From contig CP149973.1 in NCBI GenBank assembly GCA_029269845.2, positions 1,980,001 to 2,012,000 of the forward strand: a DNA stretch of 32,000 bases, written 5' to 3'. A program made the translations under genes and the position numbers. The notes beneath the pieces were generated by a model that saw nothing but the letters and a program-made list of their open reading frames with translations, made no database searches and was not told where the DNA came from. The DNA comes from Opitutia bacterium KCR 482 (GTDB taxonomy: Bacteria; Verrucomicrobiota; Verrucomicrobiia; Opitutales; Intestinicryptomonadaceae). Below are positions 5,131 to 27,644 of this stretch, in pieces (position 1 is the stretch's first letter; each line of letters opens with the position of its first letter).

Positions 5131-6912
5131 ATGCCCCGCAACCCGCTTTCATCAATTTTAAGGGACGCTTGGACTCCCGCCGACCGCCGTGAGCCTTGGC
5201 GTTGGTGCGAAGACCACATAAAAAGCATTCCGTATTCGCCGCTTCCAGGACCTTTCAGAAGCGAAAATTCGCCGTGGATACGCGAAGTTATGGAGGCTAT
5301 CGTAGACCCGAAAATCCGCCTCGTCTCGATTATCGCCGCCGTTCAAAGCTCGAAGACTACAAGCCCCGAGCTTACGCTTTGCTACATAATCGCAAACCTT
5401 CCTGGACCTTGCCTTTGGCTCGACCAGACGGACGAGGACGCAAAAGACGAATCTGAAAGCCGCCTGCAAAAACTTTTTGAAAGCTGTGAACCAGTAAAGA
5501 AATTGTTCCCGAAAAACAAGAATAAACAGCGCAACTGCACAATCCATTTTTCAAACGGGATGACGCTTTGGCTGCTGGGCGCGTATAACAAGACCAACCT
5601 CCAACGCCGTTCAATCCGCTGGCTTTTCGGAGACGAAACTTGGCGATGGCCAGTCGGACATATGGCGGAAGCGGAGGCGCGAACTACGGCTTTCGGGTGG
5701 CTCGGCAAATGCGTATTTATGTCGCAAGGCGGAGAGGAAAACGACGACACCCACCGCAAATTTGAAACAACCGATATGCGCGAATGGCACTACAAGTGCC
5801 CCAAATGCGGCAAATACATTCCCTACAAGTGGGAAAATATTGAGTGGGACGACGACTGCAAAGACGAAAACGGCGAATACGACTTTTCAAAAATCAACCA
5901 TTCAACCGCCTTGAAATGTCCCGAATGCGGAGAATATTTTGAAGATTCCGACAGAATGAGGCGCATTCTAAACAAAGACGGAAAGTTTATCGCGCTTAAC
6001 CCAAACGCTTCAAAAGAAAACGTGGGCTTTCATTGGAATGCGCTTGCTTCGATGAGTTGGGGTAAGCTTGCCGAGCTTTACCTTCGCGCGAAAATTGCCG
6101 CGAGAAAAGGCGACAGTTCCTTGCTTCAACAATTCTACCAGAAACGTCTCGCGCTTGCTTGGAGGGAATTTGCCGAAGACTATCGCCTTGAAATCGCATC
6201 TGGCAGCTACAATTCGGGCGACGCTTGGGGCGATGAAGCGGGCTTCAACAAGCTCGGCGAAATCATCGCTCCGCCTTTTGCCGAAAACGAGGTTATCGCG
6301 CCACTTCGCATAATGTCGGTTGACGTTCAGATGAACTGCTTTTACTTGGTCGTCCGCGCTTGGAGCATTAACGGTTCGAGCCGTCTTCTATGGCACGAAA
6401 AGGTGTTGACGTGGGAAGACATAGAGGAAATCCAAAAGCGTTTTAAAATTTTGAACAACCTTGTGTTTGTCGACGCAGGGTATAATTCGTTCGAGGTATA
6501 CAAGCATTGCGGAGAACGGAATTGGATTGCGCTTATGGGCGACAACAGGGCAAACTTCTTCCACAGACTTCCGAACGGCAAGACGGTTTTGCGGTTTTAC
6601 TCTCCCGTAAAGCACATATTTATTTCGCGCTACGTTAAGTGCCGTATGCATTTTTGGAGCAACCTCAACGTAAAAGACACCTTGGCGAGAATCAGGCGAA
6701 ACCAGAATCCCGCCGACGGCGCAACTTGGGAAGTTCCGACGGATATTTCCGAAGACTATTTAAAGCAAATGGAGTCCGAACACCGCATAAAAAAGGGCAA
6801 CTCGTGGATATGGGAGCAAATCGGCAACCGACCCAACCACTACCTCGACTGTGAAGCTATGAACTGTGCAGGCGCGTTGATGTTGAAGATTGTGGGGAAT
6901 GCAGCAACTTGA
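5131..6912 (+). CDS. terminase large subunit, GpA (lambda) type
   Basis: 593 aa. P-loop-like AAVQSSKTT, Walker B-like WLFGDE, an internal CPKCG...CPECG zinc ribbon typical of GpA-family terminases, and position just upstream of gpW-like and portal genes. Confidence 0.9.
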   Translation: MPRNPLSSILRDAWTPADRREPWRWCEDHIKSIPYSPLPGPFRSENSPWIREVMEAIVDPKIRLVSIIAAVQSSKTTSPELTLCYIIANLPGPCLWLDQTDEDAKDESESRLQKLFESCEPVKKLFPKNKNKQRNCTIHFSNGMTLWLLGAYNKTNLQRRSIRWLFGDETWRWPVGHMAEAEARTTAFGWLGKCVFMSQGGEENDDTHRKFETTDMREWHYKCPKCGKYIPYKWENIEWDDDCKDENGEYDFSKINHSTALKCPECGEYFEDSDRMRRILNKDGKFIALNPNASKENVGFHWNALASMSWGKLAELYLRAKIAARKGDSSLLQQFYQKRLALAWREFAEDYRLEIASGSYNSGDAWGDEAGFNKLGEIIAPPFAENEVIAPLRIMSVDVQMNCFYLVVRAWSINGSSRLLWHEKVLTWEDIEEIQKRFKILNNLVFVDAGYNSFEVYKHCGERNWIALMGDNRANFFHRLPNGKTVLRFYSPVKHIFISRYVKCRMHFWSNLNVKDTLARIRRNQNPADGATWEVPTDISEDYLKQMESEHRIKKGNSWIWEQIGNRPNHYLDCEAMNCAGALMLKIVGNAAT

Positions 6913-6964: not shown

Positions 6965-7366
6965 ATGAAGATTGAAATTGATTACATAAAACAAATATTA
7001 GATTCTCTGGAAGATTGTGATAATAACGACTATCCATCTCTTAATTATTTGATGAAATCACTTAATATAAGTATGTCTCATGGTAGAGAAATTATAAAGC
7101 TAAGATTTCATTTAAATATTTTGAAAGATGGAGGATTCGTTGAATGTATTTCAGATGATTTTGGAATATCAACGGGAATGAATGGAGATTTAATTATAAA
7201 TTCTTCTGTTGGGACGAGAATTACGCTATTAGGAGCTCAATTATTGGAATCTTTGAAAAATGATACAATATGGAACAAATCTAAGGTGTTGTTAAAAGAA
7301 ATAAGTGTTGAAACGTTAAAACAAATTCCAGGATTAGCCTTAAATATCTTAATGTCCTTTAAATGA
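6965..7366 (+). CDS. DUF2513-like winged-helix protein (accessory gene)
   Basis: AT-rich 133-aa ORF. N-terminal IDYIKQILDSLED and central RFHLNILKDGGFVECI resemble the DUF2513 pattern (DLIRxILLxlE ... yHlxLLxeaGfI). Confidence 0.4.
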   Translation: MKIEIDYIKQILDSLEDCDNNDYPSLNYLMKSLNISMSHGREIIKLRFHLNILKDGGFVECISDDFGISTGMNGDLIINSSVGTRITLLGAQLLESLKNDTIWNKSKVLLKEISVETLKQIPGLALNILMSFK

Positions 7367-7745: not shown

Positions 7746-9157
7746 CGCTGCGGAGGAAAATTGCCAATATGTTCTACGGAATCGGGCACGCGTTCGAGTC
7801 GGCAAAAGTTTCGCTTTCGCGCGGCAACCCAAATACGCTAAACCCTACGGACGCGAGCGCGGAATTGCCCTCATACACAAGAAGCGAACTCGTCCGCAAA
7901 GCCCGATACCTCGAAAAGAATTCGGGACACATTCGCGGAATTCTGCGCGATTTGAAAGTCTACGGAATAGGCAAGGGAATTTATCCTAACGCGAAATCCG
8001 ACAACCACGCTTGGAATAAACAGGCGGAGGACTTCTTCTTCAAATGGAGCAGACATTGCGATATCACAAACCGCTTTTCTTGGCGCGAATGCCAGTCGAT
8101 GATTCTGCGTTCGCTCATCGTCGACGGCGAAATCTTCGTAATAAAAACGTTCGACAGCTTCGGCATTCCCAAAATCCAGCTAATCGAAAGCCACCGCCTG
8201 ATGTCGCCAAGCTTTTCTGATAACGGGCGCATTGTTGACGGAATGGAGTTCGACAAATTCGGGCGGGTTAAAAATTACTACTTCGTTGTAGACGATAATT
8301 CGCAAACTACAAAAGTTCCCGCAAACGCGGTTTTGCATATTTTCGACCCAGAACGCGTTTCGCAGATTAGAGCTTACCCGCAAATCCAACACTCGATTAA
8401 CGACGTAATCGACCGAAAGGAAATTCTCGCGCTCGAAAAAAAGAAGGTGAAGGCGATTTCCGACATCGTCCATATCCTGAAAGGCGGTCAGGGAATGACG
8501 CTCGACGGCGACTATAAAGTTGACGTCGGCAACCGCCCCGAAGGAACGTCTACGGCAACGCTAAACCGAATCTTGGGCGGAAAAAATATCCGAATCGACC
8601 CCGACGAAAGCATAGACGTTCACGAAAGCAATATTCCCTCTCCCACGTTTTCGGGTTTTTTGACGGAGCTTGACAGAAGCGGCTCGCTCGGCGTTCTCCC
8701 ATATGAATTCGTCATAGACCCCTCGAAAATCGGCGGGGCTTCGGTGCGGCTTATCGCCTCAAAAACACAACGATACATCGACGACATCGCGCAAATCATA
8801 GACGAACGCTTCAACGACGCCGTATGGTTCTTTGTAATCGGCTGGGCAATCGACAGCGGAACTTTGCCCGCTCAAAATTGGTGGTGGTATTGCTCTTGGA
8901 CTCACCCGCGCAAACTCACCGTCGACGCGGGGCGCGAGGAACAGCAAAACCGCGCGAACGTCGAAACGGGCTTGAAAACGCTCGAAGAAAGCTTCGCCGA
9001 ATGCGGGCAGGACTTCGAGGGCGAAATGCGCACGCGCGCCGACAACGCCCGTTTCATTATGCGTTTGGCGGGAATCCCCGACAGCGAGCCGATTCCGCTT
9101 TATATGCTCTACAAGGTAAACGGCACACAGGTAATCGAAAAATCCGATGGCAAATAA
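7742..9157 (+). CDS. portal protein (lambda gpB-like)
   Basis: 471 aa, positioned between gpW-like and S49 protease genes, in the terminase-W-portal-protease synteny of lambda-like heads. Confidence 0.8.
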   Translation: MTLRRKIANMFYGIGHAFESAKVSLSRGNPNTLNPTDASAELPSYTRSELVRKARYLEKNSGHIRGILRDLKVYGIGKGIYPNAKSDNHAWNKQAEDFFFKWSRHCDITNRFSWRECQSMILRSLIVDGEIFVIKTFDSFGIPKIQLIESHRLMSPSFSDNGRIVDGMEFDKFGRVKNYYFVVDDNSQTTKVPANAVLHIFDPERVSQIRAYPQIQHSINDVIDRKEILALEKKKVKAISDIVHILKGGQGMTLDGDYKVDVGNRPEGTSTATLNRILGGKNIRIDPDESIDVHESNIPSPTFSGFLTELDRSGSLGVLPYEFVIDPSKIGGASVRLIASKTQRYIDDIAQIIDERFNDAVWFFVIGWAIDSGTLPAQNWWWYCSWTHPRKLTVDAGREEQQNRANVETGLKTLEESFAECGQDFEGEMRTRADNARFIMRLAGIPDSEPIPLYMLYKVNGTQVIEKSDGK

Positions 9158-9971
9158 CATCTTTCTAAACGGCATTTGCAGACCGTGGAATATCCACGCG
9201 GGAACGTTCCTTGCGCTTTCGCTTAGAACGCTTGCTGAGGCTTCGGGCGGAAATTCCCTCGAAACTTGGCGGGAGAAATTCTCGCAATTCGTTCCGCAAC
9301 GAAGCCCGCTTTCAATAGACGAAAACAGCATAGCGCATATTTCAATTCACGGAACGCTTTTTAACAAGGAAGCCCCGTATTTTGTGGCAGGCTATGGCGG
9401 AACCGACTACGCGGAAATTCTGCGCGACATTGAAACCGCTTCCGAAAAAGCTAAGGCGATTTTCCTGAAAATAGATTCGGGCGGCGGACACGCCTGCGGG
9501 AACGACAAAGTGGCAAAAGCCGTTTCGCAATGTCCAAAGCCCGTATTCGCCTACACCGACGAAATGTGTTGTTCTGCGGCATACGCGATAGCTTCGGGAG
9601 CTTCATACATCTGCGCGTCGGCGGATTCAACCGTTGGCAGTATCGGAACAATTCTTCCGTTAATGGACGTTTCGGGACTTTGGCAGTCGCTCGGGATAAA
9701 GCCCGACTACATTACAAACCGCGAGGGAACGCTCAAAACGGCGGGCTATCCGCCGAGCCAGAACGAAGCCGAACGCGCAGCTTTGCAAGCCGAAACGCAG
9801 GAGTATTTCGAGCTATTTAAATCACACGTTTTGGCAAACAAGCAAATTGCAAACGACGATATGCGCGGACAGGCGTTTGTAGGTATTGATGCGTTAAAGC
9901 GCGGGCTTGTCGACGAAATCTGCGACGAAAAGACCGCCTACAACAAACTCAAAATTTTGACAACCTGCTAA
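9147..9971 (+). CDS. S49 (SppA/ClpP-fold) head maturation protease
   Basis: FLKIDSGGGHACG, PVFAYTDEMCCSAAYAIASGA and STVGSIGTI match S49 peptidase blocks (IDSPGG, ASggY, GSIG). Confidence 0.85.
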   Translation: MANNIFLNGICRPWNIHAGTFLALSLRTLAEASGGNSLETWREKFSQFVPQRSPLSIDENSIAHISIHGTLFNKEAPYFVAGYGGTDYAEILRDIETASEKAKAIFLKIDSGGGHACGNDKVAKAVSQCPKPVFAYTDEMCCSAAYAIASGASYICASADSTVGSIGTILPLMDVSGLWQSLGIKPDYITNREGTLKTAGYPPSQNEAERAALQAETQEYFELFKSHVLANKQIANDDMRGQAFVGIDALKRGLVDEICDEKTAYNKLKILTTC

Positions 9972-9976
9972 GAAGT

Positions 9977-10381
9977 ATGGACGAATCTAAACAAAAAACA
10001 CTTGCCGATGCCATCGCGAAAATCGAGACGCTTTCGGCGGAAAATACGAATCTTGCTTCGGATTTGGAAGTGGCAAAGGCGCACATCTGCGAACTCGAAA
10101 ACGAATTGTCTGCCGAAAAGTCAGCGCACAATTCAACAAACGAAAAGCTCGCCGCGCTCGAAGCAAAGCACCGAGACATCGACAAAGAGGTTTCGGCAAA
10201 AGTCGCAAAAGTTGCGGCGCAAAGCGGAGTTTCACCGATTGCGGACGTTTCCAACAGTATCAACAATGAAAGCCTTGAAGAGCTTGCAAAGCGCATTGAC
10301 GCCGCCCACGGAATCGAAAAGGCAAAACTCATCGAGGAAAACTACGAACGCATTATGTCGGCAATGAAAGGAGCGTGCTAA
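9977..10381 (+). CDS. scaffolding-like coiled-coil protein
   Basis: 134 aa, Ala/Glu/Lys-rich heptad-like sequence, positioned between protease and capsid genes. Confidence 0.6.
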   Translation: MDESKQKTLADAIAKIETLSAENTNLASDLEVAKAHICELENELSAEKSAHNSTNEKLAALEAKHRDIDKEVSAKVAKVAAQSGVSPIADVSNSINNESLEELAKRIDAAHGIEKAKLIEENYERIMSAMKGAC

Positions 10382-11275
10382 GTGAACACAATTCCCGCAG
10401 CATTAAGGCGTTCGCTGATTTTGAAGTCGGCGATGGAGGAATTTAAGCACAAGCTCATTCCGCTTGGCTTGTTTTCAACGGTTCTTCGCAACGTTCCGCT
10501 CGAAGGCAACAATGAAATTGACATTCCGTATATCCCGCTTGCCACGAGCGCGAGCAAGGATTTTGACGTAACGTATAAGTTCGACAAGGGCGATATGGAG
10601 TCCCGCAAAATCACGGTAGATAGGCGCAAATACCAGTCGCTTACATACACGTCGGAGGAAAAGGCGCGCCAGCCGTATTTCGACCCGATTACGTTGGGTC
10701 GCCTCAAAGGTGCGAAGCTTGCCGAAGACGTATTGCTCGACATCTTGTCGGTAATCACCAAGGCGAATTTCGGCGAGGCGATTCTCACAAGAAACGCGAC
10801 CGACTTCGACACCGATGACATCATAGACCTCGAAACGAAGATTGACGAGCTTGAATGGCCAGACTCTCCGCGCGGAATGCTTTTGAAGTCGTCGTATATG
10901 GCGAACGTAAAAAAGGACATCAAAACATCTGGCGGGCTTGCAAACTTCGGGTTTTCGGCGTTGGGCGAACTGCCGAACCTTTTGGGATTTAGCTTTTCCA
11001 AGTTCAACAGGCTTCCGCACAACAACGAAAAGTTGCAGGGCTTTGTTGTGTATCCTTCGGCGATAATGGTTGCCCTTGCGCCGATTCAGCCTACGGCAAA
11101 CGTTATGAAGCAGCTTTCGACATACACGACCTACACCGACCCGCAGACTGGGCTTACGCTTGAATACCGCGCTTGGGGCGACGCAGATACGGACGCTTCA
11201 AAGGAAATTATCGAGTGCAATTACGGCTTCGGCGTTGGCGAAAGCAAGGCATTAAAGCGCATAGTTTCGGAATAA
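10382..11275 (+). CDS. putative major capsid protein
   Basis: 297 aa directly after the scaffold. GTG start preceded by AAAGGAG about 10 nt upstream. Called from position and size only. Confidence 0.55.
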   Translation: MNTIPAALRRSLILKSAMEEFKHKLIPLGLFSTVLRNVPLEGNNEIDIPYIPLATSASKDFDVTYKFDKGDMESRKITVDRRKYQSLTYTSEEKARQPYFDPITLGRLKGAKLAEDVLLDILSVITKANFGEAILTRNATDFDTDDIIDLETKIDELEWPDSPRGMLLKSSYMANVKKDIKTSGGLANFGFSALGELPNLLGFSFSKFNRLPHNNEKLQGFVVYPSAIMVALAPIQPTANVMKQLSTYTTYTDPQTGLTLEYRAWGDADTDASKEIIECNYGFGVGESKALKRIVSE

Positions 11276-11493
11276 TGAACTCGTTTATAACAGTGGCATA
11301 CAAGGCAAACGGAGCATCGGAAATTTTGGCAACGCCCGATATTCCCTATGCCAAGCAGCGCGAAATCTTCAAAACCCTGAAAGGCGGCTACACCGAAGTT
11401 GAAGTTTGGAGCCGTTCAATGGGCAAGATTAAACAGCGCAAAGTTTCAAAAGAATCAAAAGTTCCCAAAACTTCAAAAACATCAAAGGAGTAA
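11275..11493 (+). CDS. hypothetical small head-module protein
   Basis: The ATG at 11275 overlaps the capsid TAA by 1 nt and is in frame with track ORF 11173..11493. Lys/Ser-rich C-terminal tail. Confidence 0.45.
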   Translation: MNSFITVAYKANGASEILATPDIPYAKQREIFKTLKGGYTEVEVWSRSMGKIKQRKVSKESKVPKTSKTSKE

Positions 11494-11496
11494 AAA

Positions 11497-11745
11497 ATGA
11501 GAGAAAACGACATTTTAAGAATCAGACCCGAACACACCCACGCGGGCGGCTTGCAAATTTGCGACGACGGCGCGGACGGAACGGTTCAAAAACTGGGCTT
11601 TTTCGGTGCGACACCTACCGTTCAGCGCAAAAACGCCGCGCAGGCAAAACTTGCCGAAAACGCGACAACTGCGCAGATTGTAACCCTCGTAAACGAACTG
11701 CGAGAAGCCCTTGTAGAAAAAGGCCTGATAAAAGGTTCGGCGTAG
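11497..11745 (+). CDS. hypothetical small head-module protein
   Basis: 82-aa ORF, 3 nt after the previous stop, with composition matching the core genes. Confidence 0.45.
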   Translation: MRENDILRIRPEHTHAGGLQICDDGADGTVQKLGFFGATPTVQRKNAAQAKLAENATTAQIVTLVNELREALVEKGLIKGSA

Positions 11746-11843
11746 TAGATTTATTGTTTCTGTATTCATATAACTACAGGCTTCTGGAGAACAGGAGACT
11801 CCTTTTTGCTTGAAAAATATGTTAATCTATTTATGACAAAAGT

Positions 11844-13109
11844 ATGTCGATTAATAAAGATGAATTTAAAGAATTTGTTAAAGATTTAATATTCCCACTT
11901 TTTACGGGGTTATCTATATTAGAAGAAGATCTTCCTATTCCTAAAAACAACAGAGATAAATTAGTCACAACTTGTAAAGATAAAGGCGATACAATCTTAC
12001 GTTTAATGCCAGAAAAGGATGCCAAATTCGTAGTATCAATCCAACGTTCTCAAAAATTCAATAAGTCTGAAATAGAACTGATACGTCGTTTATTGAAACA
12101 TACAAACGAATACGGCTTGTATCAAGTTGATTACAAAAAAGAACTTGTTGATTTTATACATAATAAATCTGTCGCAGAAACGCTTTCAACTACAGCAGAT
12201 AAATCTATCCTGGAAATAATAAATATTTTCATGTCTCTTTCGCAAGAAACATACGAGGGACATCATATTTCATATGCAGTTGCTATTTCTGAAGAGGAAG
12301 TTGGAAATAGTGAAATTTATTTTAAGGACATTATAAAAGAAGATTTCGGGAAAACGCTTACAAATTCAATTGATTCTTTATTGTGCTTGGATAAAAATTG
12401 TATGCTACTGTCACATATGCAAATAGAGAGTATTGAGCAAAACTCTGAATTCAAACAATGTTATTATCCTTTGAGATTTGAGAAATTGGCAAATAGATCT
12501 TTAACGAAAAAATTACTAGTTATTGTTTTGACTAGAGATGGAGAAATTTTAATATTTAAAGAAGGTAATTTGATTTTTTCAAGAAGAAGAGGGATATGGA
12601 CTTATTATCTACACGACATTCTAATTAAACAGATGGGTATAATTCGTAATCAAGAAGTAAAAAAATCTATATATTCAACAATTCTAGATGCTTCTTTTTC
12701 AAAGGGCGGAGCCTGTATTGCCGTAGTAAATAGTGAAACATATTTACAAGATTTATATGACAAGAAAAATTTCATTGGAAACAATGAAGATTCGCCATTA
12801 AAGTCGAAATGTTGCTATTGCTTAATATTAAACAGTGAAAAAACATTGAAATTCAATCAATTGCCTAGAATCTTACGCTTAGAATTTTCCTCAATGGACG
12901 GTGCAGTCCTTTTAAAAACAAACGGTGATATTATCGCTATTGGTGCGATTATAAATATTAAAGATGGAGAAATTTCAGAAGGAGGTAGAACGGCTGCCGC
13001 AAGAAAGCTAGCCGAGAAAGGAATTGCAGTAAAGGTGTCTAATGATGGATATATTAGAGCGTTCAAAAAAAAGGATAAGAGATCAAAAGAATCATTCAGA
13101 ATAGCATAA
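11844..13109 (+). CDS. accessory protein with diadenylate-cyclase-like (DisA_N/DAC-fold) C-terminal domain
   Basis: AT-rich 421-aa ORF. Its C-terminal third is collinear with recollected CdaA/DisA blocks. SKGGACIAVVNSETYLQDLY matches REGALIVFEKETGLQDYI. MDGAVLLKTNGDIIAIGA contains the DGA motif at nt 12897-12905. EGGRTAAARKLAE sits in place of LGTRHRAAVGISE (nt 12981-13001). IAVKVSNDGYIRAF matches VIVSEETGDISV. Confidence 0.6.
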   Translation: MSINKDEFKEFVKDLIFPLFTGLSILEEDLPIPKNNRDKLVTTCKDKGDTILRLMPEKDAKFVVSIQRSQKFNKSEIELIRRLLKHTNEYGLYQVDYKKELVDFIHNKSVAETLSTTADKSILEIINIFMSLSQETYEGHHISYAVAISEEEVGNSEIYFKDIIKEDFGKTLTNSIDSLLCLDKNCMLLSHMQIESIEQNSEFKQCYYPLRFEKLANRSLTKKLLVIVLTRDGEILIFKEGNLIFSRRRGIWTYYLHDILIKQMGIIRNQEVKKSIYSTILDASFSKGGACIAVVNSETYLQDLYDKKNFIGNNEDSPLKSKCCYCLILNSEKTLKFNQLPRILRLEFSSMDGAVLLKTNGDIIAIGAIINIKDGEISEGGRTAAARKLAEKGIAVKVSNDGYIRAFKKKDKRSKESFRIA

Positions 13110-13115
13110 TCTGAT

Positions 13116-13139
13116 TTTGACAAAGCCCATATTCGTATG
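13116..13139 (+). promoter_or_regulatory. module-start element copy 4 (TTTGACA-N14-ATG)
   Basis: tttgacaaagcccatattcgtATG. The ATG at 13137 is the ORF start. The spacer and ATG form the terminator hairpin. Confidence 0.45.
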
Positions 13140-13148
13140 GGCTTTTTT
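13122..13148 (+). terminator. intrinsic terminator of the DAC-like gene
   Basis: aaagcccata-ttcg-tatgggcttt is a perfect 10-bp stem with a TTCG loop, running into a T6 tract, 13 nt after the stop at 13109. Confidence 0.75.
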
Positions 13149-13448
13149 CGTGAAATTAAATCGGCGTTGGTGGAAATCTTTTCCTCTTTTTCGCAGCCTG
13201 TCATTTGGCGCGGGCGCGTTATGAATGCGATAATAGCCGAGGGGCAAGAGGCGGTCGAATTGGAGACTGGCGGGTTTGTTCCCGATTCCACTTTTTATAT
13301 GAAATTTTTGGAGTCGGAACTTGACGGCGAATATCCCCACATCGGCGAAGTTGTCGAATATAATGGAAGACAATTCCGCATACATTGGGTGTCGGTTCGC
13401 GTAAAGCGCGGGCAAGTCGAAATAACCCTAAAACCAATCGACAAATGA
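13137..13448 (+). CDS. putative head-tail joining / head-closure protein
   Basis: 103 aa. The C-terminal GEVVEYNGRQFRIHWVSV...VEITL resembles the Phage_H_T_join pattern (G..Y.I..V....r..l.l). First gene after the head module. Confidence 0.45.
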   Translation: MGFFREIKSALVEIFSSFSQPVIWRGRVMNAIIAEGQEAVELETGGFVPDSTFYMKFLESELDGEYPHIGEVVEYNGRQFRIHWVSVRVKRGQVEITLKPIDK

Positions 13449-14185
13449 GCGTGAATTTTGAAATCATCGCAAAAGACTTTGAAGACGCCCTCGCAAAATA
13501 CAAAGTAGCCTGCCGCAAGGATTGGCAATTTGTGGTTCGGCAACAGTCGCGTATTGTCGGCGAAAGGCTTGTGAAATTTACTCCGCCTAAAACTGCGGCA
13601 ATAGGCAAGCGCAATGTCGCGCGGGACATTGGCAAGGTGTTTGCAGACCTAAGCAATACAAAATGGCACGACAAGTCTTTGGATAAAATGTGGCGCGCGG
13701 GAAACTTCGAGGGCGTAAAAAAGGCTCTCGAAAACAACCCTAATAAGCTTCAAATGCCCGTCTTTAAATACAAGCGGATTCTCGCAAAGCCAGTCCGCAA
13801 TATCCACAAAGCGGCAATCAGTAGAAGCGGAAGAGTCCCGAAGAATTGGCATACTACCTACGCAGTAGCAGCCAAAGGCGAACTTAAAAAATACGTCAAA
13901 AGGGTTCAGCTACAAGTTGGCGTTGCAAAATCTGGCTGGCTTGCGGCTCTTGTAAAATTGGGCGGCAAAACCCCAAGTTTTGTTTCGCGCCACGGCACAA
14001 AATACGGCGGATTTATCGACGGCAATAAGGGAGACAATCCATTTTTTACCCTAATCAACAAGGTTTCTACATTCCCGCAGGGAGGCACGCCCGCAAGAAT
14101 TTTGCGCCGCGCGTTCATCGCCCAAATAAAGGCTATGGAAAATAATATCAAACGCCTGATGGACAAATCAGGAAGGATTTTCTAA
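13445..14185 (+). CDS. hypothetical virion (neck/connector) protein
   Basis: ATGA overlap with the upstream gene, in frame with track ORF 13385..14185. Called from position only. Confidence 0.45.
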   Translation: MSVNFEIIAKDFEDALAKYKVACRKDWQFVVRQQSRIVGERLVKFTPPKTAAIGKRNVARDIGKVFADLSNTKWHDKSLDKMWRAGNFEGVKKALENNPNKLQMPVFKYKRILAKPVRNIHKAAISRSGRVPKNWHTTYAVAAKGELKKYVKRVQLQVGVAKSGWLAALVKLGGKTPSFVSRHGTKYGGFIDGNKGDNPFFTLINKVSTFPQGGTPARILRRAFIAQIKAMENNIKRLMDKSGRIF

Positions 14186-14583
14186 TGCGCGAAAAACTCG
14201 AAAATATACTTTTTACAAAGCTGAAAGCTTCGATTCCTGCGGAATTTAAAACAATGCTTGTTTGTGGACATTCCACGAACGACAGACACATTCCGTATAT
14301 CAGCCTCGATGTCGGCGAACTTCGCCCGTTCGGCGATTTGCAATCCTCCGACGGAATGTTTGAAGCCGATGTAAACATTGCCATAGCAGATTCCGCTCAC
14401 GACATCGAATATCCCGAACTCTTTAAACGCATTCGCTCCGTAATGGTGGCTTTCGAGAATTTTTCCTACACGGAAGACAATATCCTAATAAACGCCTTAT
14501 ATTACGAAAACGAAACGGACGCCAGAGACGACAACAACCTCGGCTGTGTAATGACATTCAAAGCCGTAGTTCAGTTTTTGTAA
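14185..14583 (+). CDS. putative tail completion/terminator-like protein
   Basis: 132 aa, with a TAATG overlap with the upstream gene. Size and position resemble DUF3168/gpU-like proteins. Weak call. Confidence 0.35.
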   Translation: MREKLENILFTKLKASIPAEFKTMLVCGHSTNDRHIPYISLDVGELRPFGDLQSSDGMFEADVNIAIADSAHDIEYPELFKRIRSVMVAFENFSYTEDNILINALYYENETDARDDNNLGCVMTFKAVVQFL

Positions 14584-14592
14584 CAGAAAAAT

Positions 14593-14616
14593 TTTGACAC
14601 CGTTCCCTTTTGTATG
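14593..14616 (+). promoter_or_regulatory. module-start element copy 5 (TTTGACA-N14-ATG)
   Basis: tttgacaccgttcccttttgtATG. The ATG at 14614 is the ORF start. tttgtatg-N7-catacaaa (14609-14631) can pair across the AUG. Confidence 0.5.
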
Positions 14617-14976
14617 AGCAATCCATACAAACTAAGAGGGACAAAACAGCCTGTTTCTTTCGGCGTTGAAAAGCTTGACGGCTACATTGTCGACGCCACC
14701 GAAGAGACTATCGAGGGCGAAGAGCTTGAAGTTGAAGACGAAAACAACAACGTAGTTGCGCATTTTTCGGGCTTCGGGATTCGATACAAACGCACTGCAA
14801 GCGTGATTCCGCTTGTAGGCGCAACCGCGCCTCTTCCTGGAGATTCGTTTAAAATCGGCGACAGCTTCGAATTCATCGTAAAGTCTGTCAAGAAATCCCG
14901 CGCCCGCAAGGACGTTGAAAAATGGGATTTGGAGGGCACATACTACCCCGAAGTCCCTATGGAGGGAATCGGGTAA
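14614..14976 (+). CDS. putative major tail protein
   Basis: 120 aa, two genes upstream of the tape measure. Positional inference only. Confidence 0.3.
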   Translation: MSNPYKLRGTKQPVSFGVEKLDGYIVDATEETIEGEELEVEDENNNVVAHFSGFGIRYKRTASVIPLVGATAPLPGDSFKIGDSFEFIVKSVKKSRARKDVEKWDLEGTYYPEVPMEGIG

Positions 14977-15506
14977 TGGAAGACTTCTACGAAGCCTTTA
15001 TAAATTGCTCGCACACGGCTTTGGGCAAACGCCTGAAGCCTTTTTGCTTGAAGCATTGCCTGTATTTGGAGGCTGTAAATTCGCCGATAATGCGCATTGT
15101 AAACGGCGAGGAAGCGGAAATTTCCCGCCAAGATTTGGAGGTAGCCGTTATTATTTGCTCGGCGGACGATATTCTAAAAAGCCTGAAATACCCGCATTTT
15201 GGAATGAAATTCCATTCATACAGACGCGGATTAACGGCGTTTCTTTCGTATCTGACAGACTTTGTAGCCGTTCCCGAACTCTGGGATAAAAGCGATTCGG
15301 AAACAACGCTCAACGCGCCTTGGATACTCTCGCGGGCGATGTTGCTTCTTTCAAAAACATCGCTAAGGCTTGACGAGGTTTGGAATATGCCGCTTGGAGA
15401 GCTACTCTGGTATTGCGCCGTGTTTGCCGAGCAGGAAGGAGTCGCGCAAATCCAGTCTGACGAAGAAAGGCGGATAATCGAGGAGGTGCAAAATGGCAAC
15501 AAGTAG
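14976..15506 (+). CDS. putative tail assembly chaperone
   Basis: The ATG at 14976 overlaps the upstream TAA. Lies immediately upstream of the tape measure gene and overlaps it by 14 nt. No slippery heptamer found. Confidence 0.35.
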   Translation: MEDFYEAFINCSHTALGKRLKPFCLKHCLYLEAVNSPIMRIVNGEEAEISRQDLEVAVIICSADDILKSLKYPHFGMKFHSYRRGLTAFLSYLTDFVAVPELWDKSDSETTLNAPWILSRAMLLLSKTSLRLDEVWNMPLGELLWYCAVFAEQEGVAQIQSDEERRIIEEVQNGNK

Positions 15507-16971
15507 CATTCTTGCAAAAATCGGGCTAAATTCGGCTGGATTTAAAACGGGGTTGGCGCAATGCCGAATGGCGGCGGGGAATTTCAAAAAGTCCGTCGGC
15601 GGTATGTTTTCGGGAATCGGTTCGCAGATTCTCGGAGCGTTGGGAGTGTCGGCTGGCATTGTTGGGATTTCCGCGCTCACGCAAAAAACAATCGAATTCG
15701 GCGGGCACATTGAGGATATGGCAAACCAGCTGCGAATGGGCAAAAGCGAATTTCAATCGCTTGCCTACGCCGCAAAGCTTGCGGGGGTTGAAGAATCGAA
15801 GCTTGTCCAGACTCTGCAAACCCTCAATCAGCGCACGATTGACGCCTGCGACGGCAACGATACCTACCGCGACGCCCTAAACCGCCTCGGCATAGACTTG
15901 AAGAATTTCGCCGACCAGTCTCCCGAAAAGCGTTTTGAAATGCTCGGCGTTGCCTTTAAGAATTCGGACGAATCGCTCACCGCGCTGAACGACATTTCGA
16001 CGATATTGGGGCAAAAGACAGCTCCGCAACTTTTGGAGGTTTTGGACAAGGTGGCGACGCAGGGAATGGAAAACATAACCCAGTCGGCAATCGAAGCGGG
16101 CAACGTTATGGACGAGGAAACGCTTGCCGCTCTTGCCCGCGCGGGAGACGAAATCGACAAATGGCAAAACCGAATCATAGTCGGATTCGGAGGGTTTCTC
16201 GCAGATATGGCCTCCGCAATCGGACGGCAAAAGTGGGGGCTTATGATTGGTATGAAGTTCGCCCAAGCGGGCGAATTTATCGAGGAGGCGTTGCGGGATA
16301 TTTCAAACTACATACTCGCGGTGTTTTCGAGCGTGTTTAGATACATAAACGGCGCGTTTTCGGGCTTTGTTGTTCCCATTCGCAACGCATTTGTGGGGTT
16401 TATCGAAACCGTCGGAAACGCGTTGGGGAAGTTCGTCGGAATGTTTTCCGACAGTTGGCAAAATGCGATAAACAATGCGCTTGACGGCTTACGCGAACTA
16501 AAAGACGAGGCAAACCTACTTTCCGCGAAAGACAAAAACAAAAGTTTCGGGCAGATTTTTGCAGAGGAAGTTTCCGACGCGTCGAATAGGAACAATTCGC
16601 GCAATCGCCAGAATTTGCTTACTTCAAAATCGGTTGATTGGTATAAGAAACAGCTAAAAAACGTCGAACAAGCCCGCGATGTCGAAAAGCAGTTGGCGGT
16701 TTCGGCGGAAAATGTGCGCAAGGCAAAATATCGAAAAGCCGACGAGTCGCCCGAAATCAAAAAGTCGGCAAAAGAGCGGAAGCTTGAAAAGTCGCTATCA
16801 AACCACAACGATTCGTCGCTTGCAAAAATCGGCGGAGGCGGACTTCTTGCCGCCCGCTACGACATCACCGCAAAACAGCTCTCGGAATCCAAACGCCAGT
16901 CGAAACTGCTCCAAAAGATAGCCGACAACACCGAACGCCAGTCGGTAAAATCGGAGTTGTTGATGAAGTGA
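15493..16971 (+). CDS. tail tape measure protein
   Basis: 492 aa. Gly/Ala-rich hydrophobic N-terminal segment (GIGSQILGALGVSAGIVGISAL), a long helical Ala/Leu/Gln-rich body, and the canonical position. Confidence 0.7.
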   Translation: MATSSILAKIGLNSAGFKTGLAQCRMAAGNFKKSVGGMFSGIGSQILGALGVSAGIVGISALTQKTIEFGGHIEDMANQLRMGKSEFQSLAYAAKLAGVEESKLVQTLQTLNQRTIDACDGNDTYRDALNRLGIDLKNFADQSPEKRFEMLGVAFKNSDESLTALNDISTILGQKTAPQLLEVLDKVATQGMENITQSAIEAGNVMDEETLAALARAGDEIDKWQNRIIVGFGGFLADMASAIGRQKWGLMIGMKFAQAGEFIEEALRDISNYILAVFSSVFRYINGAFSGFVVPIRNAFVGFIETVGNALGKFVGMFSDSWQNAINNALDGLRELKDEANLLSAKDKNKSFGQIFAEEVSDASNRNNSRNRQNLLTSKSVDWYKKQLKNVEQARDVEKQLAVSAENVRKAKYRKADESPEIKKSAKERKLEKSLSNHNDSSLAKIGGGGLLAARYDITAKQLSESKRQSKLLQKIADNTERQSVKSELLMK

Positions 16972-16973
16972 TT

Positions 16974-18269
16974 TCAGAGAATTTCCCAATGCCCGCCTTT
17001 GTCCGCTCCGACACGTTTTATTTTATTTTTGGCTTTTAACTCTCGTATGTGTTTTTCAATAGTAGAAGACCCTAATTGTAAAATTGAGGCAATTTCTCCC
17101 GTCGTTATGTCGGGATTTTCGCCCATCAATTTTAGGATTTTCTCCTTGCTTTTCTCCTTACCTTTCTCCTTACCTTTCTCCTTACCTTTTATCTGGTCGA
17201 AAGTGAAAGAGACTCGCAAATAATGGTCTGTAAATTCAAAGATTGACCTGTCATACTTTCTCATAATGCGGGTCATACCCGATCCCAAGTGTTCCACATA
17301 ACCCAGATCTTTGAAGATTCTCATCAGTTCCCGATTTCTGGGCTTTGATATTCCCCCGAAAAATTCTTCCCTACTAAGGCCGTCAATTAGTCCGCCGTAG
17401 GAAGTTATGACAAATTTGTCCGAGAATATTTCAAAAAGAGGAGTATCCTCCGAGGAGTAGTCGTTGTGGACAAAGGCGTTTATTATGGCCTCTCTTAACG
17501 CCACCTTATCAACCAACGGGCTGTCGATTCGTTGTCCAGAAGTAATCTCCGATCTTGTAATATTTTCCAGTTCAAACTTATCCAAAACGCTTTGAACGGA
17601 TTTTATAAGCGAACAATATCCGTATTCCTCGTTTTCACGCAAGTCGGCTTTGTCTTCGCCCCAATATTTGGCAACCCTAATTGAAGCCGAATTTTCGTCA
17701 GCCAATAGGAACGCGTCGTAATTAAATTTGCCCGACCCCGTCAGCAAATCCAGTGTTTTCGGGAAATTATCGTTTAGAGGCATCCCGCGTTCCTCATAGC
17801 AGATTTTCAACTGGCGAAAAGTCAAATCCTGCCGTTTGGATTCGATGTTTGCGATGGATTTTCTTACGCGCCTTATAAACAAATCCTCTATCATCGACTT
17901 CGTCATGGGGTGCGAAGAACTTCCTATTCTTATGAAACACCCGCTCTCCGACATTCCCTTGCGCTTTATGTAATACGGTTTTTCGACGCCGCTTGCCAAT
18001 GTTATTTTCAAAACGGTTTTTCCGGAAATTTCCTCGCACGCAATATCGAACAGCCCCATTGCGCTTGGAGAAATATTCGACATTAGTCTGTCTTTTATCT
18101 TCAACTGAACCTCGTCGCAATTATCGACACCGACGGCATTTCCGTTTTTGTCGATACCCACATAAACTACGCCGCCCTCATTGTAGTTCAAAAACGCGAC
18201 TATTTCCTTCTCGAAGTCGTCCGTTAGGCGTTCTTTAAATTCAACTCTGCTATTTTCGACCAAATCCAT
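16974..18269 (-). CDS. Schlafen/AlbA_2 - HATPase_c_4 - winged-HTH protein (accessory)
   Basis: N-terminal ENSRVEFKERL...VVYVGIDKNGNAVGV...KPYYIKRKG (AlbA_2/divergent AAA_4). Central REAIINAFVHNDYS...FVITSYGGL (HATPase_c_4). C-terminal ITTGEIASILQLGSSTIEKHIRELK (wHTH). Opposite strand to all neighbouring genes. Confidence 0.75.
   Translation of the reverse strand: MDLVENSRVEFKERLTDDFEKEIVAFLNYNEGGVVYVGIDKNGNAVGVDNCDEVQLKIKDRLMSNISPSAMGLFDIACEEISGKTVLKITLASGVEKPYYIKRKGMSESGCFIRIGSSSHPMTKSMIEDLFIRRVRKSIANIESKRQDLTFRQLKICYEERGMPLNDNFPKTLDLLTGSGKFNYDAFLLADENSASIRVAKYWGEDKADLRENEEYGYCSLIKSVQSVLDKFELENITRSEITSGQRIDSPLVDKVALREAIINAFVHNDYSSEDTPLFEIFSDKFVITSYGGLIDGLSREEFFGGISKPRNRELMRIFKDLGYVEHLGSGMTRIMRKYDRSIFEFTDHYLRVSFTFDQIKGKEKGKEKGKEKSKEKILKLMGENPDITTGEIASILQLGSSTIEKHIRELKAKNKIKRVGADKGGHWEIL
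17139..17190 (-). repeat. in-frame 12-nt tandem repeat encoding (KGKE)n linker
   Basis: cttttctcctta / cctttctcctta / cctttctcctta (17149-17184) plus degenerate flanks. On the minus strand it encodes KGKEKGKEKGKEKSKEK, between the HATPase_c_4 and wHTH parts. Confidence 0.8.
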
Positions 18270-22093: not shown

Positions 22094-22858
22094 TTATTGA
22101 TATAAATCGGTAAAAATGCCCTTTAGCCCGACAGGATTTACCGAGATGATTTTCGTGTCAGGATAATACGTTTCGGCAAATTTTTTTAACATTATCCAGT
22201 TGCCGATTAGTTTGTTCATTGAAGTTGTCGACTTTGTTTTATCGAAATATCCCGAAGAGCAATCGCAGCCTACAAGATAAATCTTGTCTGGGTTTGTCCA
22301 AAGAATAAATTGCATGGCCGAGAAACTTACCGAATTAAAATCTCCCAACATTGTAGATGAAATATCATATGCAAATTGATGAGGTTTACATATTTCGTCA
22401 GTAAAGTAGCGGCTGGCTTTTAATTTTAACGCTAAAGATTCGGGGATAATCAGATTTGATTGCGGAAGAACGCCAATGAACTTTTTTATGTGCGAGTATT
22501 TTTCTTCTAAGAGGTAGCAAATATAGTCTTTTGAATTAAAATCTTGAATAAAAAGATAATCCAAATTCAATTTATCAAATAAGAATGACTTATTTACTCC
22601 AACATTAACTACATTTGGTATTTGCTTATACTGCGATAGGGTTGGCCCAGTAGCAATTAGTGCAACTGACTTGCCTTCATTAATATTTTTATATTTATCA
22701 AAAGAATGTGAATGAATTTTTGCCACACTATTTGCCAGCATGGTGGCTCTAATTGCCAGCCTGTAGTCGGATTTATCGAAAACTCTTTTATGAAATTTGA
22801 TTCCCATAAAATTGTAAGTTTTATGGACTCCGTCTTCTGAAATTTTAAATAGTTTCAT
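22094..22858 (-). CDS. DUF115 / sialyltransferase-like glycosyltransferase
   Basis: VALIATGPTLSQY (compare the IAGNGPSL box of GT42/DUF115 proteins) and IYLVGCDCS (compare IYLxGxD). AT-rich. Confidence 0.45.
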   Translation of the reverse strand: MKLFKISEDGVHKTYNFMGIKFHKRVFDKSDYRLAIRATMLANSVAKIHSHSFDKYKNINEGKSVALIATGPTLSQYKQIPNVVNVGVNKSFLFDKLNLDYLFIQDFNSKDYICYLLEEKYSHIKKFIGVLPQSNLIIPESLALKLKASRYFTDEICKPHQFAYDISSTMLGDFNSVSFSAMQFILWTNPDKIYLVGCDCSSGYFDKTKSTTSMNKLIGNWIMLKKFAETYYPDTKIISVNPVGLKGIFTDLYQ

Positions 22859-23630
22859 TTGTCAAAAGGATTTCAAAAAAGTTGCCAAATTTTGTGCCCC
22901 AACTTGGAGTTTTTATATCTGATGTTAGCATGGCAAATAACTTTTCGTTATTTAGCGGGTTCATTTTAGCGTCTCTCATATTTTTCCATTTACTGGAAAC
23001 GCTTACGATTTTTTCGGATGTATTTTTCAAGTCCTTAAAAAACGGAGGGTGTAGTGCTAAAAAAACTGTATAATCCGAAAGATTTTTCAAATCGTCTAAA
23101 ATAAGTTCTTCAGCGCCTTCAATGTCTATTTTTATTATTAATTTTTTCCCGAATAGGTTTTTGTTTTTAATAAAGGAGGAGAGTTTTGTTGATGGAATTT
23201 TCCAATCGTGCCCTCTAATACTCGACGCAGAAGATGTGCCGTTTTTTATTTTCCCTCCAAAATCTACTATACCGCCGTCTACATTTGTAACGCATAAATT
23301 ACTTAAATCTGCAGAAAGCGTGCTTTTATTGTATGCGCAATTCTGTTTTACGATAGCAAAAGATTCGGGGTTTGCTTCAATCCCATATATTTGTTTGTAT
23401 CCCAATTCTGCGGCAAAAAATATTGTCATGCCAACCCATGTTCCGACATCTATATAAACGGCGTCTGGAGAAACAAACTGTTTAAAAATATTGTAAGTTT
23501 GAGGTTCCCATCCCGTTTTGTCGTATTCATTCCAAAACCAATGATTTTGCACTTTGAAATATGTTTTATTTATTTCAATAAAGCGCGTTTGTGTGTATTT
23601 CTTTGAATTAAACCAAGTTAGTTTTAACAT
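22845..23630 (-). CDS. FkbM-family methyltransferase
   Basis: VYIDVGTWVGMTIFFAAELGYKQIYGIEANPESF matches the FkbM motif (DVGAnxG...EP.P). Confidence 0.65.
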   Translation of the reverse strand: MLKLTWFNSKKYTQTRFIEINKTYFKVQNHWFWNEYDKTGWEPQTYNIFKQFVSPDAVYIDVGTWVGMTIFFAAELGYKQIYGIEANPESFAIVKQNCAYNKSTLSADLSNLCVTNVDGGIVDFGGKIKNGTSSASSIRGHDWKIPSTKLSSFIKNKNLFGKKLIIKIDIEGAEELILDDLKNLSDYTVFLALHPPFFKDLKNTSEKIVSVSSKWKNMRDAKMNPLNNEKLFAMLTSDIKTPSWGTKFGNFFEILLTNETI

Positions 23631-23634
23631 ATTT

Positions 23635-24741
23635 TTAATATTTTAACTTTTTGCCGAACAGGCGGTTGAAAAAGGAAAGAGATTTTTTTCTTTCGTTCTG
23701 CCAATGTAGATCATATAGATCCTTGTATAAAAATCGCTTTGCCTCTGCAAACTTATCCGAATCAGTCCTGAGAACTTCTTCGCCTTTTAAAACACGTTGA
23801 TAGAAATCAACATGATGGCAAACAAGATTTTCTTCGTTATAGTATTTCGTTATCCAATCCCTTGAAAAATTTCCTATGTCGGATAATAAATTTTTGTTTT
23901 TCAATAAATTTTTTAAAACAATTTCTATGTCGTTTATGGACGTGTTTACGAATGGGCAATCGTTGCATTTGAAGTAGGAGATAAAGTTCTGCATAGAACG
24001 ACCGTCAAGAAAACAGAAAACTACTTTCCCTTGCGAAAGGCCTTCAAATTCCGTAAGGTGAAATGAACCCGTTACAATATCGCCAATAAGGATATCGGCT
24101 TCTCTTCGAATTTTAATCGCTTCGTTATAGGGTATTCCGAAAATTTCCACATATTTAAAACCCAATTTTGTTGATAACTTTTTTAGCTTGGAGGAAACCT
24201 CGGGATATCCTTTTGTGTCCCATCTACGTTCAAATCTTTTCCGTTTTGTAGATGCAGAAAATGCAACTATTGGAATTTCATTCCATGTCTTTTTCGGGGA
24301 TAATTCTTCGGATTGTGTCGGAATAATGTTTGGCAGAATTTCGACATCTAAAAAAGATCTTTCGGGATAGTGTGGAATGACTGCCCGTGCATTAAACCCC
24401 TTTAAACATGGATTCGAAAGGCCATATACAAAGCGATTCGAATGAAAGTGCTGTATGAATTTACAAGAAGGTTTGGCGAGTTCTTTTAGGCTTATGCCAA
24501 ACTTATTGTTTACCAAATCCATTGGGTGATGACATACAATTATATCTGCTGCGGAAATTAACGAAAGAGCAATGTTCTTGTCTTGCTGCCAAATTAAATC
24601 TTCGGGGAAAACTCTGGAATTATAGGCGTTTGGATTCAAATTAATTAAACGAGCTTTCACATTTGTAAAAGCGTTTAACGCATTTACAATTCTTATAGGA
24701 GCGCCCGCCAATGGTGTATATGTTAAATGAACAACCAACAT
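23635..24741 (-). CDS. putative glycosyltransferase (GT-B-like)
   Basis: 368 aa within the glycan gene cluster. The N-terminus (LVVHLTYTPLAGAPIRIVNAL) is typical of GT-B N-domains. Weak call. Confidence 0.35.
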   Translation of the reverse strand: MLVVHLTYTPLAGAPIRIVNALNAFTNVKARLINLNPNAYNSRVFPEDLIWQQDKNIALSLISAADIIVCHHPMDLVNNKFGISLKELAKPSCKFIQHFHSNRFVYGLSNPCLKGFNARAVIPHYPERSFLDVEILPNIIPTQSEELSPKKTWNEIPIVAFSASTKRKRFERRWDTKGYPEVSSKLKKLSTKLGFKYVEIFGIPYNEAIKIRREADILIGDIVTGSFHLTEFEGLSQGKVVFCFLDGRSMQNFISYFKCNDCPFVNTSINDIEIVLKNLLKNKNLLSDIGNFSRDWITKYYNEENLVCHHVDFYQRVLKGEEVLRTDSDKFAEAKRFLYKDLYDLHWQNERKKSLSFFNRLFGKKLKY

Positions 24742-25577: not shown

Positions 25578-25578
25578 T

Positions 25579-26598: not shown

Positions 26599-26623
26599 TT
26601 GACAATCGTATTCTTAATACGAT
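26599..26623 (+). promoter_or_regulatory. TTGACA box plus 19-bp palindrome overlapping the integrase start
   Basis: TTGACA at 26599-26604, then atcgtatt-ctt-aatacgat (26605-26623, 8-bp arms), whose last two bases are the AT of the ATG at 26622. Confidence 0.5.
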
Positions 26624-27617: not shown

Positions 27618-27620
27618 TAA

Positions 27621-27644
27621 TTTGACAAGTCTGCTTCTTGTATG
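27621..27644 (+). promoter_or_regulatory. module-start element copy 7 (TTTGACA-N14-ATG)
   Basis: tttgacaagtctgcttcttgtATG. The ATG at 27642 is the ORF start. gacaag..cttcttgt (27624-41) pairs with acaagaagcttgtc (27667-80). Confidence 0.5.

Follow-up and report, generated by a model that had tools for sequence, protein, structure and literature searches.

The window analysed here, 32,000 nucleotides long, belongs to a lambda-like prophage in the genome of Opitutia bacterium KCR 482 (Verrucomicrobiota); between the head and tail genes of that prophage lies an AT-rich gene (11844..13109, forward strand) which we call the cargo gene. We read this gene, with a probability of roughly 0.5, as a stand-alone sensor-cyclase of anti-phage defence that is carried as a prophage moron and benefits the lysogen. 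Its 421-aa product is predicted from structural models to consist of three parts, namely an N-terminal domain, a degenerate diadenylate cyclase (DAC) fold that we term pseudo-DAC, and a catalytic-type DAC domain; the gene itself is horizontally acquired and occupies a variable insertion site in the prophage late operon. By exact protein match the product corresponds to two records of the same bacterium, WYJ07251.1 ('hypothetical protein') and MDF3287305.1 ('diadenylate cyclase'). A preliminary description of this DNA had covered 11746-13148, that is, the upstream intergenic stretch, the cargo gene and the downstream hairpin, and had taken the product for an orphan DAC-like protein with an intact DGA motif and a degenerate RHR motif.

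Fold and catalytic residues of the cargo protein

The cargo protein matched the Pfam DAC model (PF02457) over residues 337-408 with an E-value of 1e-5 and a score of 25.5 bits, which is under the gathering threshold of 27 bits, while PADLOC and PHROGs gave no match and NCBIfam only matches at noise level. A full-length AlphaFold2 (AF2) model built with eight homologs reached a pLDDT of 85 and a pTM of 0.86, and its top 28 Foldseek matches in the PDB were all DAC domains (CdaA, DisA, DacM, 2fb5; E-values from 4e-5 to 8e-3, probability 1.0, about 165 aligned columns), with nothing meaningful below them. In the comparison with CdaA, DisA and CdaS the TM-score normalised to the target was 0.5-0.6. 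When residues 1-265 were modelled alone (pLDDT 82, pTM 0.83), the top 18 PDB matches were again all DAC domains (CdaA/DacA/DisA; E-values from 9e-4 to 6e-2, probability 0.90-1.0, 134-171 columns). According to these models, residues ~266-421 are predicted to form a DAC fold and residues ~100-258 a second, catalytically degenerate one that lacks the DGA and GxR motifs. The remaining ~99 N-terminal residues had no fold match among the Foldseek results and no detectable relative, and are a candidate sensor or oligomerisation module.

The profile search and the structural comparison with CdaA and DisA that the preliminary description had proposed as checks had different outcomes: the second returned the DAC fold, and the first found Pfam DAC, below its threshold, and neither DACNG nor DACNH. 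The DAC-like nature of the protein and its DGA motif hold, and the statement that the ~270 N-terminal residues match nothing has to give way to a second DAC fold. Within the pseudo-DAC, E138 (in a TYEG motif), P209, R248 and W252 are invariant across the family. An internal hhalign comparison of residues 126-265 with the C-terminal domain was weak (E=0.009) and not significant alone; it pairs IDSLL with MDGAVLL and RDGEILIF with SNDGYIRAF. We used hhalign for residue mapping only, and the fold claims rest on Foldseek.

All the motifs quoted in the preliminary description are found in the protein: GGACIAVV at residues 288-295, MDGAVLL at 351-357 (with DGA at 352-354), GGRTAAARKLAE at 380-391, where R382-T383-A384 takes the RHR position, and VKVSNDGYIRAF at 396-407. 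Among 135 diverse family members, D352, G353, G380, R382, K397, S399 and G402 are invariant and A354, A384, A385 and D401 reach a conservation of 90% or more, the consensus at the RHR position being G-G-R-x-A-A. Residues were mapped onto Listeria CdaA sequences recovered from the PDB search and aligned by hhalign. In this sequence alignment D352-G353-A354 corresponds to D171-G172-A173 of CdaA, G380-G381-R382-T383-A384-A385 to G201-T202-R203-H204-R205-A206, S399 to S222 and D401 to E224 of the VSEE segment, the last two by sequence alignment only.

Two preprints of August 2026 bear on the altered RHR motif. D68, G69, G103 and R105 of EcPanS are the only residues fully conserved among ~1200 DACs, EcPanS activity is abolished by D68A and by R105A, and EcPanS has G104 and A108 where DisA has T107 and T111 (Nabhani et al., PMC13640721); the catalytic sites of the active VcPanS are described as 'DGF and GGR' (Ragucci et al.). 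Given the GGR of VcPanS and the EcPanS residues, the R-T-A of the cargo protein therefore belongs to a PanS-type GGR-x-A-A motif, and, as judged from the alignments, the four universal DAC catalytic residues (D352, G353, G380 and R382) all appear intact. The preliminary description was right that the His and the second Arg of RHR are missing, but in calling the motif degenerate it overstated the defect.

The same residues bear on the idea that the DAC/pseudo-DAC pair is an inactive binder of a cyclic nucleotide or ATP, acting as a phage sponge or decoy or as a receptor or regulator, which would make of it a rare cyclase fold turned nucleotide binder. We regard this as unlikely. The reduction of RHR to R-x-A across the family, a DAC-fold domain in the protein already without catalytic residues, the lack of a linked effector and the location on a phage all fit such a binder; however, conservation of the four universal residues and of the Ser/acidic pair in 135 divergent members is unexpected for a protein that merely binds. 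A role as an anti-defence sponge is also hard to fit to a family whose members are mostly chromosomal and embedded in restriction-modification (R-M) loci and which has no relatives in IMG/VR or BFVD. Of the defence and the sponge reading, it is the former that the context favours.

That a housekeeping c-di-AMP synthase of the CdaA/DisA type lies in the prophage by chance is very improbable. One NCBI record bears the name 'diadenylate cyclase', and the cargo protein shares with CdaA, DisA and CdaS the fold and the D-G, G-x-R and S-x-acidic positions. It has, however, no transmembrane helices, no helix-hairpin-helix (HhH) domain, no regulatory helices of the CdaS type and no other canonical architecture, and T383 and A384 replace H204 and R205 of CdaA. 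When 110 family members were compared with the NCBIfam models, none matched CdaA and a single one matched DisA, weakly (E=0.049). The gene is moreover mobile, patchy in distribution, AT-rich with a GC content 19 points under that of the backbone, and missing from most sister phages. Architecture and distribution together effectively refute a housekeeping cyclase.

An exchangeable insertion in the prophage late operon

The prophage genes follow the order ParB-like genes, methyltransferase, TerL (GpA), portal (Phage_portal_2), S49 protease, scaffold-like gene, major head protein, a 72-aa gene, an 82-aa gene, the cargo gene, a gene with a weak Phage_attach match, and tail genes. TerL is at most 27% identical to that of any known phage, and a blastn search of the prophage module against known phages returned no match. 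The cargo gene has a GC content of 0.307 (0.235 at third codon positions, GC3), while the backbone has 0.502 on its left (8000-11768) and 0.485 on its right (13115-16900), in agreement with the earlier picture of an AT-rich gene within a contiguous morphogenesis region. The proposed position between head and connector genes stands as regards the head, the major head protein matching phrog_283/267, and is less firm on the connector side, where the Phage_attach match is below threshold (E=3.9e-4).

Major head proteins 91-94% identical to that of the window are encoded on six IMG/VR contigs (L052-L057), none of which encodes a relative of the cargo protein. As seen by blastn and MAFFT, homology of the backbone runs up to the T-run at 11803-11807 and is found again from 13115. 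At this site L052 and L054, whose major head proteins are 94% identical to that of the window, have 33 bp where the window has ~1.3 kb, and L057, which we counted as empty, has 76 bp. The other three sister phages hold different cargo: a HigB-like toxin with a helix-turn-helix (HTH) antitoxin (HigB/HigA) in L056 (7491-8113, +), a RelB antitoxin with an unannotated 121-aa partner in reverse orientation in L053 (6195-6827, -), and a 387-aa AT-rich protein without a Pfam match in L055 (7452-8615, +). A further contig, L046, carries at the same site (5383-6648) an allele of the cargo gene that is 78% identical. The cargo is accordingly a discrete, moron-type insertion between conserved genes, missing in close relatives and deviant in composition, as had been proposed. 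In 90% clusters the major head protein has 1310 members and the cargo protein 9, which means that the gene is carried by a small minority of the phage lineage. The 387-aa protein of L055 is another uncharacterised candidate defence cargo.

Comparison of the window with the L046 allele gave a dN/dS of 0.147 overall and of 0.12-0.17 in each of the three domains, and the cargo gene is under purifying selection in all three. Its dS of 0.97 exceeds that of the flanking backbone genes (0.21-0.40) by a factor of 2.4 to 4.5, which suggests either that the two phages exchanged or separately acquired diverged alleles, without vertical inheritance of the cargo, or that the cargo diverged earlier.

The terminators around the site also differ between the window and the empty-site phages. 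Where the site is empty, the 82-aa gene is followed at once by a strong terminator, GGGAGCTTTCGGGAAACTGGAAGCTCCC-T7; it folds with -21.9 kcal/mol (z -4.9) in L052, compared with -9.4 kcal/mol (z -1.25) for the degraded copy in the window. Downstream of the cargo gene, the hairpin at 13122-13145 with its T-run to 13148 folds with -13 kcal/mol (z=-3.0), the corresponding sequence of phages with an empty site having only a weak fold (-6.9 kcal/mol, z=-0.4). The 3' arm of this post-cargo hairpin is the conserved start of the next backbone gene (ATG at 13137), and only where the cargo is forward-oriented is its 5' arm perfect. A AGCCCATA...TATGGGCT hairpin overlapping the start codon of the next gene is common to all forward-oriented cargos and is missing at empty sites and with the reverse-oriented cargo. 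The strong terminator that had been ascribed to the gene is thus real as a hairpin, but is not wholly the gene's own, half of its stem being backbone sequence.

A discrete AT-rich gene between late genes, bounded by terminators, at a site that is empty or occupied by toxin-antitoxin (TA) genes in other phages, resembles the morons and defence hotspots of phages and prophages, with the difference that a DAC-fold cargo has not been reported at such sites. The setting could also be that of a counter-defence or host-manipulation gene, in which a constitutive phage DAC would raise c-di-AMP or cUMP-AMP (cUA) and so keep guard effectors of the Panoptoo/PanDA type repressed, or re-tune the potassium and osmotic physiology of the host as a form of lysogenic conversion. 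PanE effectors are repressed by DAC products and released once phage sponges remove these products, so that a phage-made signal might, in principle, silence them; the residues for catalysis are intact, and the prophage holds other cargo of the conversion type in its GT8/FkbM block. We nevertheless hold this explanation to be distinctly unlikely. A large regulatory N-terminal region is at odds with a simple constitutive enzyme, the family occurs mainly in bacterial R-M and defence contexts across phyla, and sister phages carry TA modules at this site, a kind of cargo typical of defence or addiction. The host has no known PanE-like gene, though no search for one was made.

The cargo family, its neighbourhoods and the defence reading

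While a word-indexed search retrieved 8 clusters only, an exhaustive profile search found 1600 clusters at 50% identity with E<1e-3, and 534 with E<1e-30. Nearly all members are full-length, with 390-430 aa. A species-level genome scan placed 40 loci in 40 species, scattered patchily over many phyla (Planctomycetota, Actinomycetota, Alpha- and Deltaproteobacteria, Bacteroidota (Hymenobacter), Verrucomicrobiota, Acidobacteriota, Spirochaetota, Bacillota and others). Pfam DAC was matched at E<=0.01 by 31 of the 110 relatives compared (best 4.8e-7); no other Pfam family recurred among them, and neither DACNG nor DACNH was matched. NF053872 ('DS2_3_antiphage', the DAC protein of DS-2) was weakly matched by 28 of the 110 at E<=0.1 (best 0.0016).

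A few members depart from the common architecture. By eye, P0018 has an extra N-terminal domain resembling HU/IHF-type DNA-binding proteins and P0088 an extra N-terminal AlbA_2-type domain with 'GGLIFIGVNE', fusions that hint at nucleic-acid sensing, and P0086, P0119 and P0074 have long low-complexity inserts within the DAC domain.

IMG/VR contains no relative of the cargo protein and BFVD no DAC fold. The single INPHARED match, MT837587.1, was rejected as a phage relative; it is an unverified 6.6 kb fragment whose phage origin is not convincing and which encodes a large wall protein of the SLH type. The papers searched yielded no characterised phage-borne DAC, which agrees with the preliminary description, and no characterisation of the family, though an earlier bioinformatic name for this architecture is still possible.

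In the neighbourhoods of the homologs, restriction genes recur. The family gene stands between a Type III Mod and a Res-like protein in six species of Phycisphaerales as well as in L059, a metagenomic contig; in L022 the order is DrmD-like helicase, Type III Mod, Type III Res, a 133-aa gene and the family gene, and in L009 two unassigned ORFs (691 and 403 aa), the family gene and a Type I restriction subunit (HsdR). Other neighbours match models of a CBASS cyclase, PglX, RmrA, mad2, a Type I methyltransferase and Type IIG enzymes, the CBASS cyclase models accounting for one match among 113 neighbours from 35 homolog loci. P0004 adjoins a Ser/Thr kinase gene, and P0008 (Bacillota) sits in a mobile element of the integrative and conjugative type (ICE), between a ThsA_Macro gene pair (a 202-aa gene and ThsA_Macro) and a relaxase. 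The contigs with P0008 (L047-L051) show, besides the relaxase/MobC element, an Agr-type quorum-sensing cassette (AgrB, HATPase_c_5, LytTR) and nearby a giant SNF2/MutS_I-like protein of ~2500 aa.

A gene lying within an R-M operon may be a latent second-line defence triggered by anti-restriction, as in the PrrC paradigm. The likeness of our family to PrrC/RloC is one of genomic logic only, a gene foreign to restriction standing between the genes of R-M subunits; an anticodon nuclease and a DAC are unrelated in fold and chemistry. The recurrence of the family gene between mod and res, or beside a Type I restriction subunit, in independent lineages could also be that of an R-M accessory subunit or regulator, with the DAC-like fold serving some purpose other than the synthesis of a second messenger, such as ATP sensing or the control of Res, and the phage copy being an orphan. 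We think this improbable, as adjacent R-M genes are lacking in most homologs, among them the window copy, L006 and the Hymenobacter loci L012/L013, and the conserved catalytic-type residues point to nucleotide chemistry.

The 2026 literature, the year in which DACs were first recognised as immune enzymes, describes only DS-2C/CdaG (CBASS-DAC) and PanS (Panoptoo/PanDA) as defence DACs, each working together with an effector encoded next to it. DS-2 has been validated as a defence system, and protection by it requires the DAC catalytic residues. DS-2C/CdaG (DS-2, Liu-DS2) has the order DACNG-DACNH-DAC and ~550-575 aa, compared with the 421 aa of the cargo protein. DACNH is described as a very distant, catalytically dead DAC relative, and its tandem with DAC parallels that of pseudo-DAC and DAC in the cargo protein; NF053872 is also the only curated model that the family touches repeatedly. 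The cargo protein, however, matches neither DACNG nor DACNH, and with NF053872 it scores 12.7 bits (E=0.029, residues 347-382 only) against a cutoff of 630 bits. The DS-2C/CdaG operon contains a CD-NTase and a phospholipase or 2TM-beta effector, whereas the window copy is solitary among phage structural genes.

With PanS the cargo protein shares GGR in place of (T)RHR, and G104 and A108 of EcPanS correspond to its G381 and A385. In PanS a DG(F) motif replaces the DGA that the cargo protein keeps. PanS is a constitutive protein of ~150 aa, with a DAC domain only, and is always paired with the 2TM-beta effector PanE, while the cargo protein has 265 additional N-terminal residues forming two further domains, and no PanE-like 2TM-beta gene lies beside the cargo gene in the window, in L001-L005 or in L046. 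The cargo family thus falls outside DS-2C/CdaG, PanS, CdaA and DisA; in its presumed working it comes nearest to the first two.

From the fold and tandem architecture, the residue conservation, the insertion, the purifying selection and the distribution of the family with its R-M, mobile and defence contexts, we infer an enzymatic activity, a product, a trigger, an effector and a defence phenotype that would fit together as follows. The N-terminal domain and the pseudo-DAC would hold the catalytic-type DAC in check until a phage-derived cue brought about productive DAC pairing; by analogy with the R-M-embedded genes, foreign nucleic acid or interference with restriction might provide this cue. 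From ATP, alone or together with another NTP, the enzyme would then make a cyclic dinucleotide, either c-di-AMP or possibly cUA, the latter being considered because of the PanS-like G381 and A385. Growth arrest or abortive infection would follow, through an unlinked host receptor or through a nucleotide drain.

Several results weigh against this defence reading. As regards the fold, the Pfam score is sub-threshold, an hhalign comparison of the C-terminal domain with a two-sequence CdaA alignment was not significant (E=0.023), and the family hidden Markov model (HMM) retrieved no DAC from the PDB sequences. As regards catalysis, the His and second Arg of RHR are missing family-wide, and an RHR-to-AAA triple mutant of M. 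tuberculosis DacA loses ATP binding and activity; the latter does not speak against activity of the cargo protein, because that mutant also removes the conserved first Arg. A linked effector is present neither in the window nor as a conserved feature of the homologs, all-against-all clustering of neighbours at the 40 loci gave no conserved partner gene, and many of the neighbourhoods contain housekeeping genes; the preliminary description, which had called the gene an orphan and asked for a survey of this kind, is confirmed on this point. Finally, no sigma-70-like promoter was found upstream of the cargo gene, where the Opitutia consensus may differ, and no Shine-Dalgarno sequence was detected directly 5' of it, so that its expression in the lysogen is only putative.

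A more specific form of the defence reading, which we regard as doubtful, is a single-chain asymmetric DAC in which the pseudo-DAC would replace the second protomer of the head-to-head dimer. Such a protein would make an asymmetric or linear nucleotide signal, or would be auto-inhibited until a trigger swapped the partners. Its role would be that of a guard without an effector, linked to R-M and carried by the prophage, for sensing anti-restriction or foreign DNA. The pseudo-DAC has invariant residues of its own in E138, R248 and W252; if true, this form would define a new class of immune sensor built on DAC that differs from both CBASS-DAC and Panoptoo.

The cargo family would be a third DAC-based immune form beside DS-2C and PanS, distinguished by a stand-alone pseudo-DAC/DAC tandem, by its embedding in Type I and Type III R-M loci and by an exchangeable site in a temperate phage. 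If it is active, it raises the questions of which nucleotide is made, what is sensed, and by what means a cyclase can protect when no effector is dedicated to it. It would provide a handle, too, on the unexplained pseudo-cyclase domains of the DACNH type.

Features of the locus and other cargo of the prophage

The features of the insertion and its borders are collected in Table 1.

Table 1. Features of the cargo insertion and the adjoining backbone genes, in window positions.
Feature	Position	Strand	Basis or remark
Backbone gene left of the site, 82 aa	11497..11745	+	Kept in all sister phages
Degenerate copy of the backbone terminator	11779..11807	+	Hairpin 11779-11802, T-run 11803-11807
Cargo insertion, ~1307 bp, GC 0.31	11808..13114	+	blastn and MAFFT against L052-L057 and L046; composition
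Insertion point			Inside the T-run, with the backbone terminator on the left and, on the right, the TTTTGACAA motif upstream of the next gene
Cargo ORF, 421 aa	11844..13109	+	
N-terminal domain, ~aa 1-99	11844..12140	+	Near-invariant R68 and F72
Predicted degenerate DAC-fold domain, ~aa 100-258	12141..12617	+	Foldseek of the 1-265 model; weak hhalign
Predicted catalytic-type DAC domain, ~aa 266-421	12639..13106	+	Pfam DAC, Foldseek, Pfam matches of relatives
D352-G353-A354 codons (DGA motif)	12897..12905	+	D and G invariant in 135 family members
G380-G381-R382-T383-A384-A385 codons	12981..12998	+	G380 and R382 invariant; A384 and A385 near-invariant
K397-V-S399-N-D401-G402 codons	13032..13049	+	K397, S399 and G402 invariant
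Terminator-like hairpin AAAGCCCATA-TTCG-TATGGGCTTT and T-run	13122..13148	+	
Backbone gene right of the site, 103 aa	13137..13448	+	Weak Phage_attach / head-tail attachment match

Other genes of the same prophage resemble cargo as well. One with the look of a second moron or of defence-type cargo is found on the opposite strand at 16974-18269 (-), between a tape-measure-like gene (15493-16971) and tail genes; its 431-aa product combines Schlafen AlbA_2, HATPase_c_4 and winged-HTH domains (phrog_12156). A third moron-like insertion is suggested by a DUF2513 gene at 6965-7366 (+), which sits in a pocket of 31% GC between TerL and the portal region.

The AT-rich block at 22094-25721 (-) comprises a GT8 glycosyltransferase, an FkbM-type methyltransferase, a weak MptE-like protein and an unassigned 368-aa protein, and is probably a surface-polysaccharide-modifying cargo of the lysogenic conversion type; the sister contig L001 has a Mrr_cat gene in its place. 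Further downstream, at 26622-29855 (+), an integrase-family gene directly precedes the gene of a 737-aa tail-fibre-like protein in which 'KSA(S/A)R(K/T)NLDV' segments recur, and this pair may be a recombinase-linked host-range module rather than the end of the prophage.

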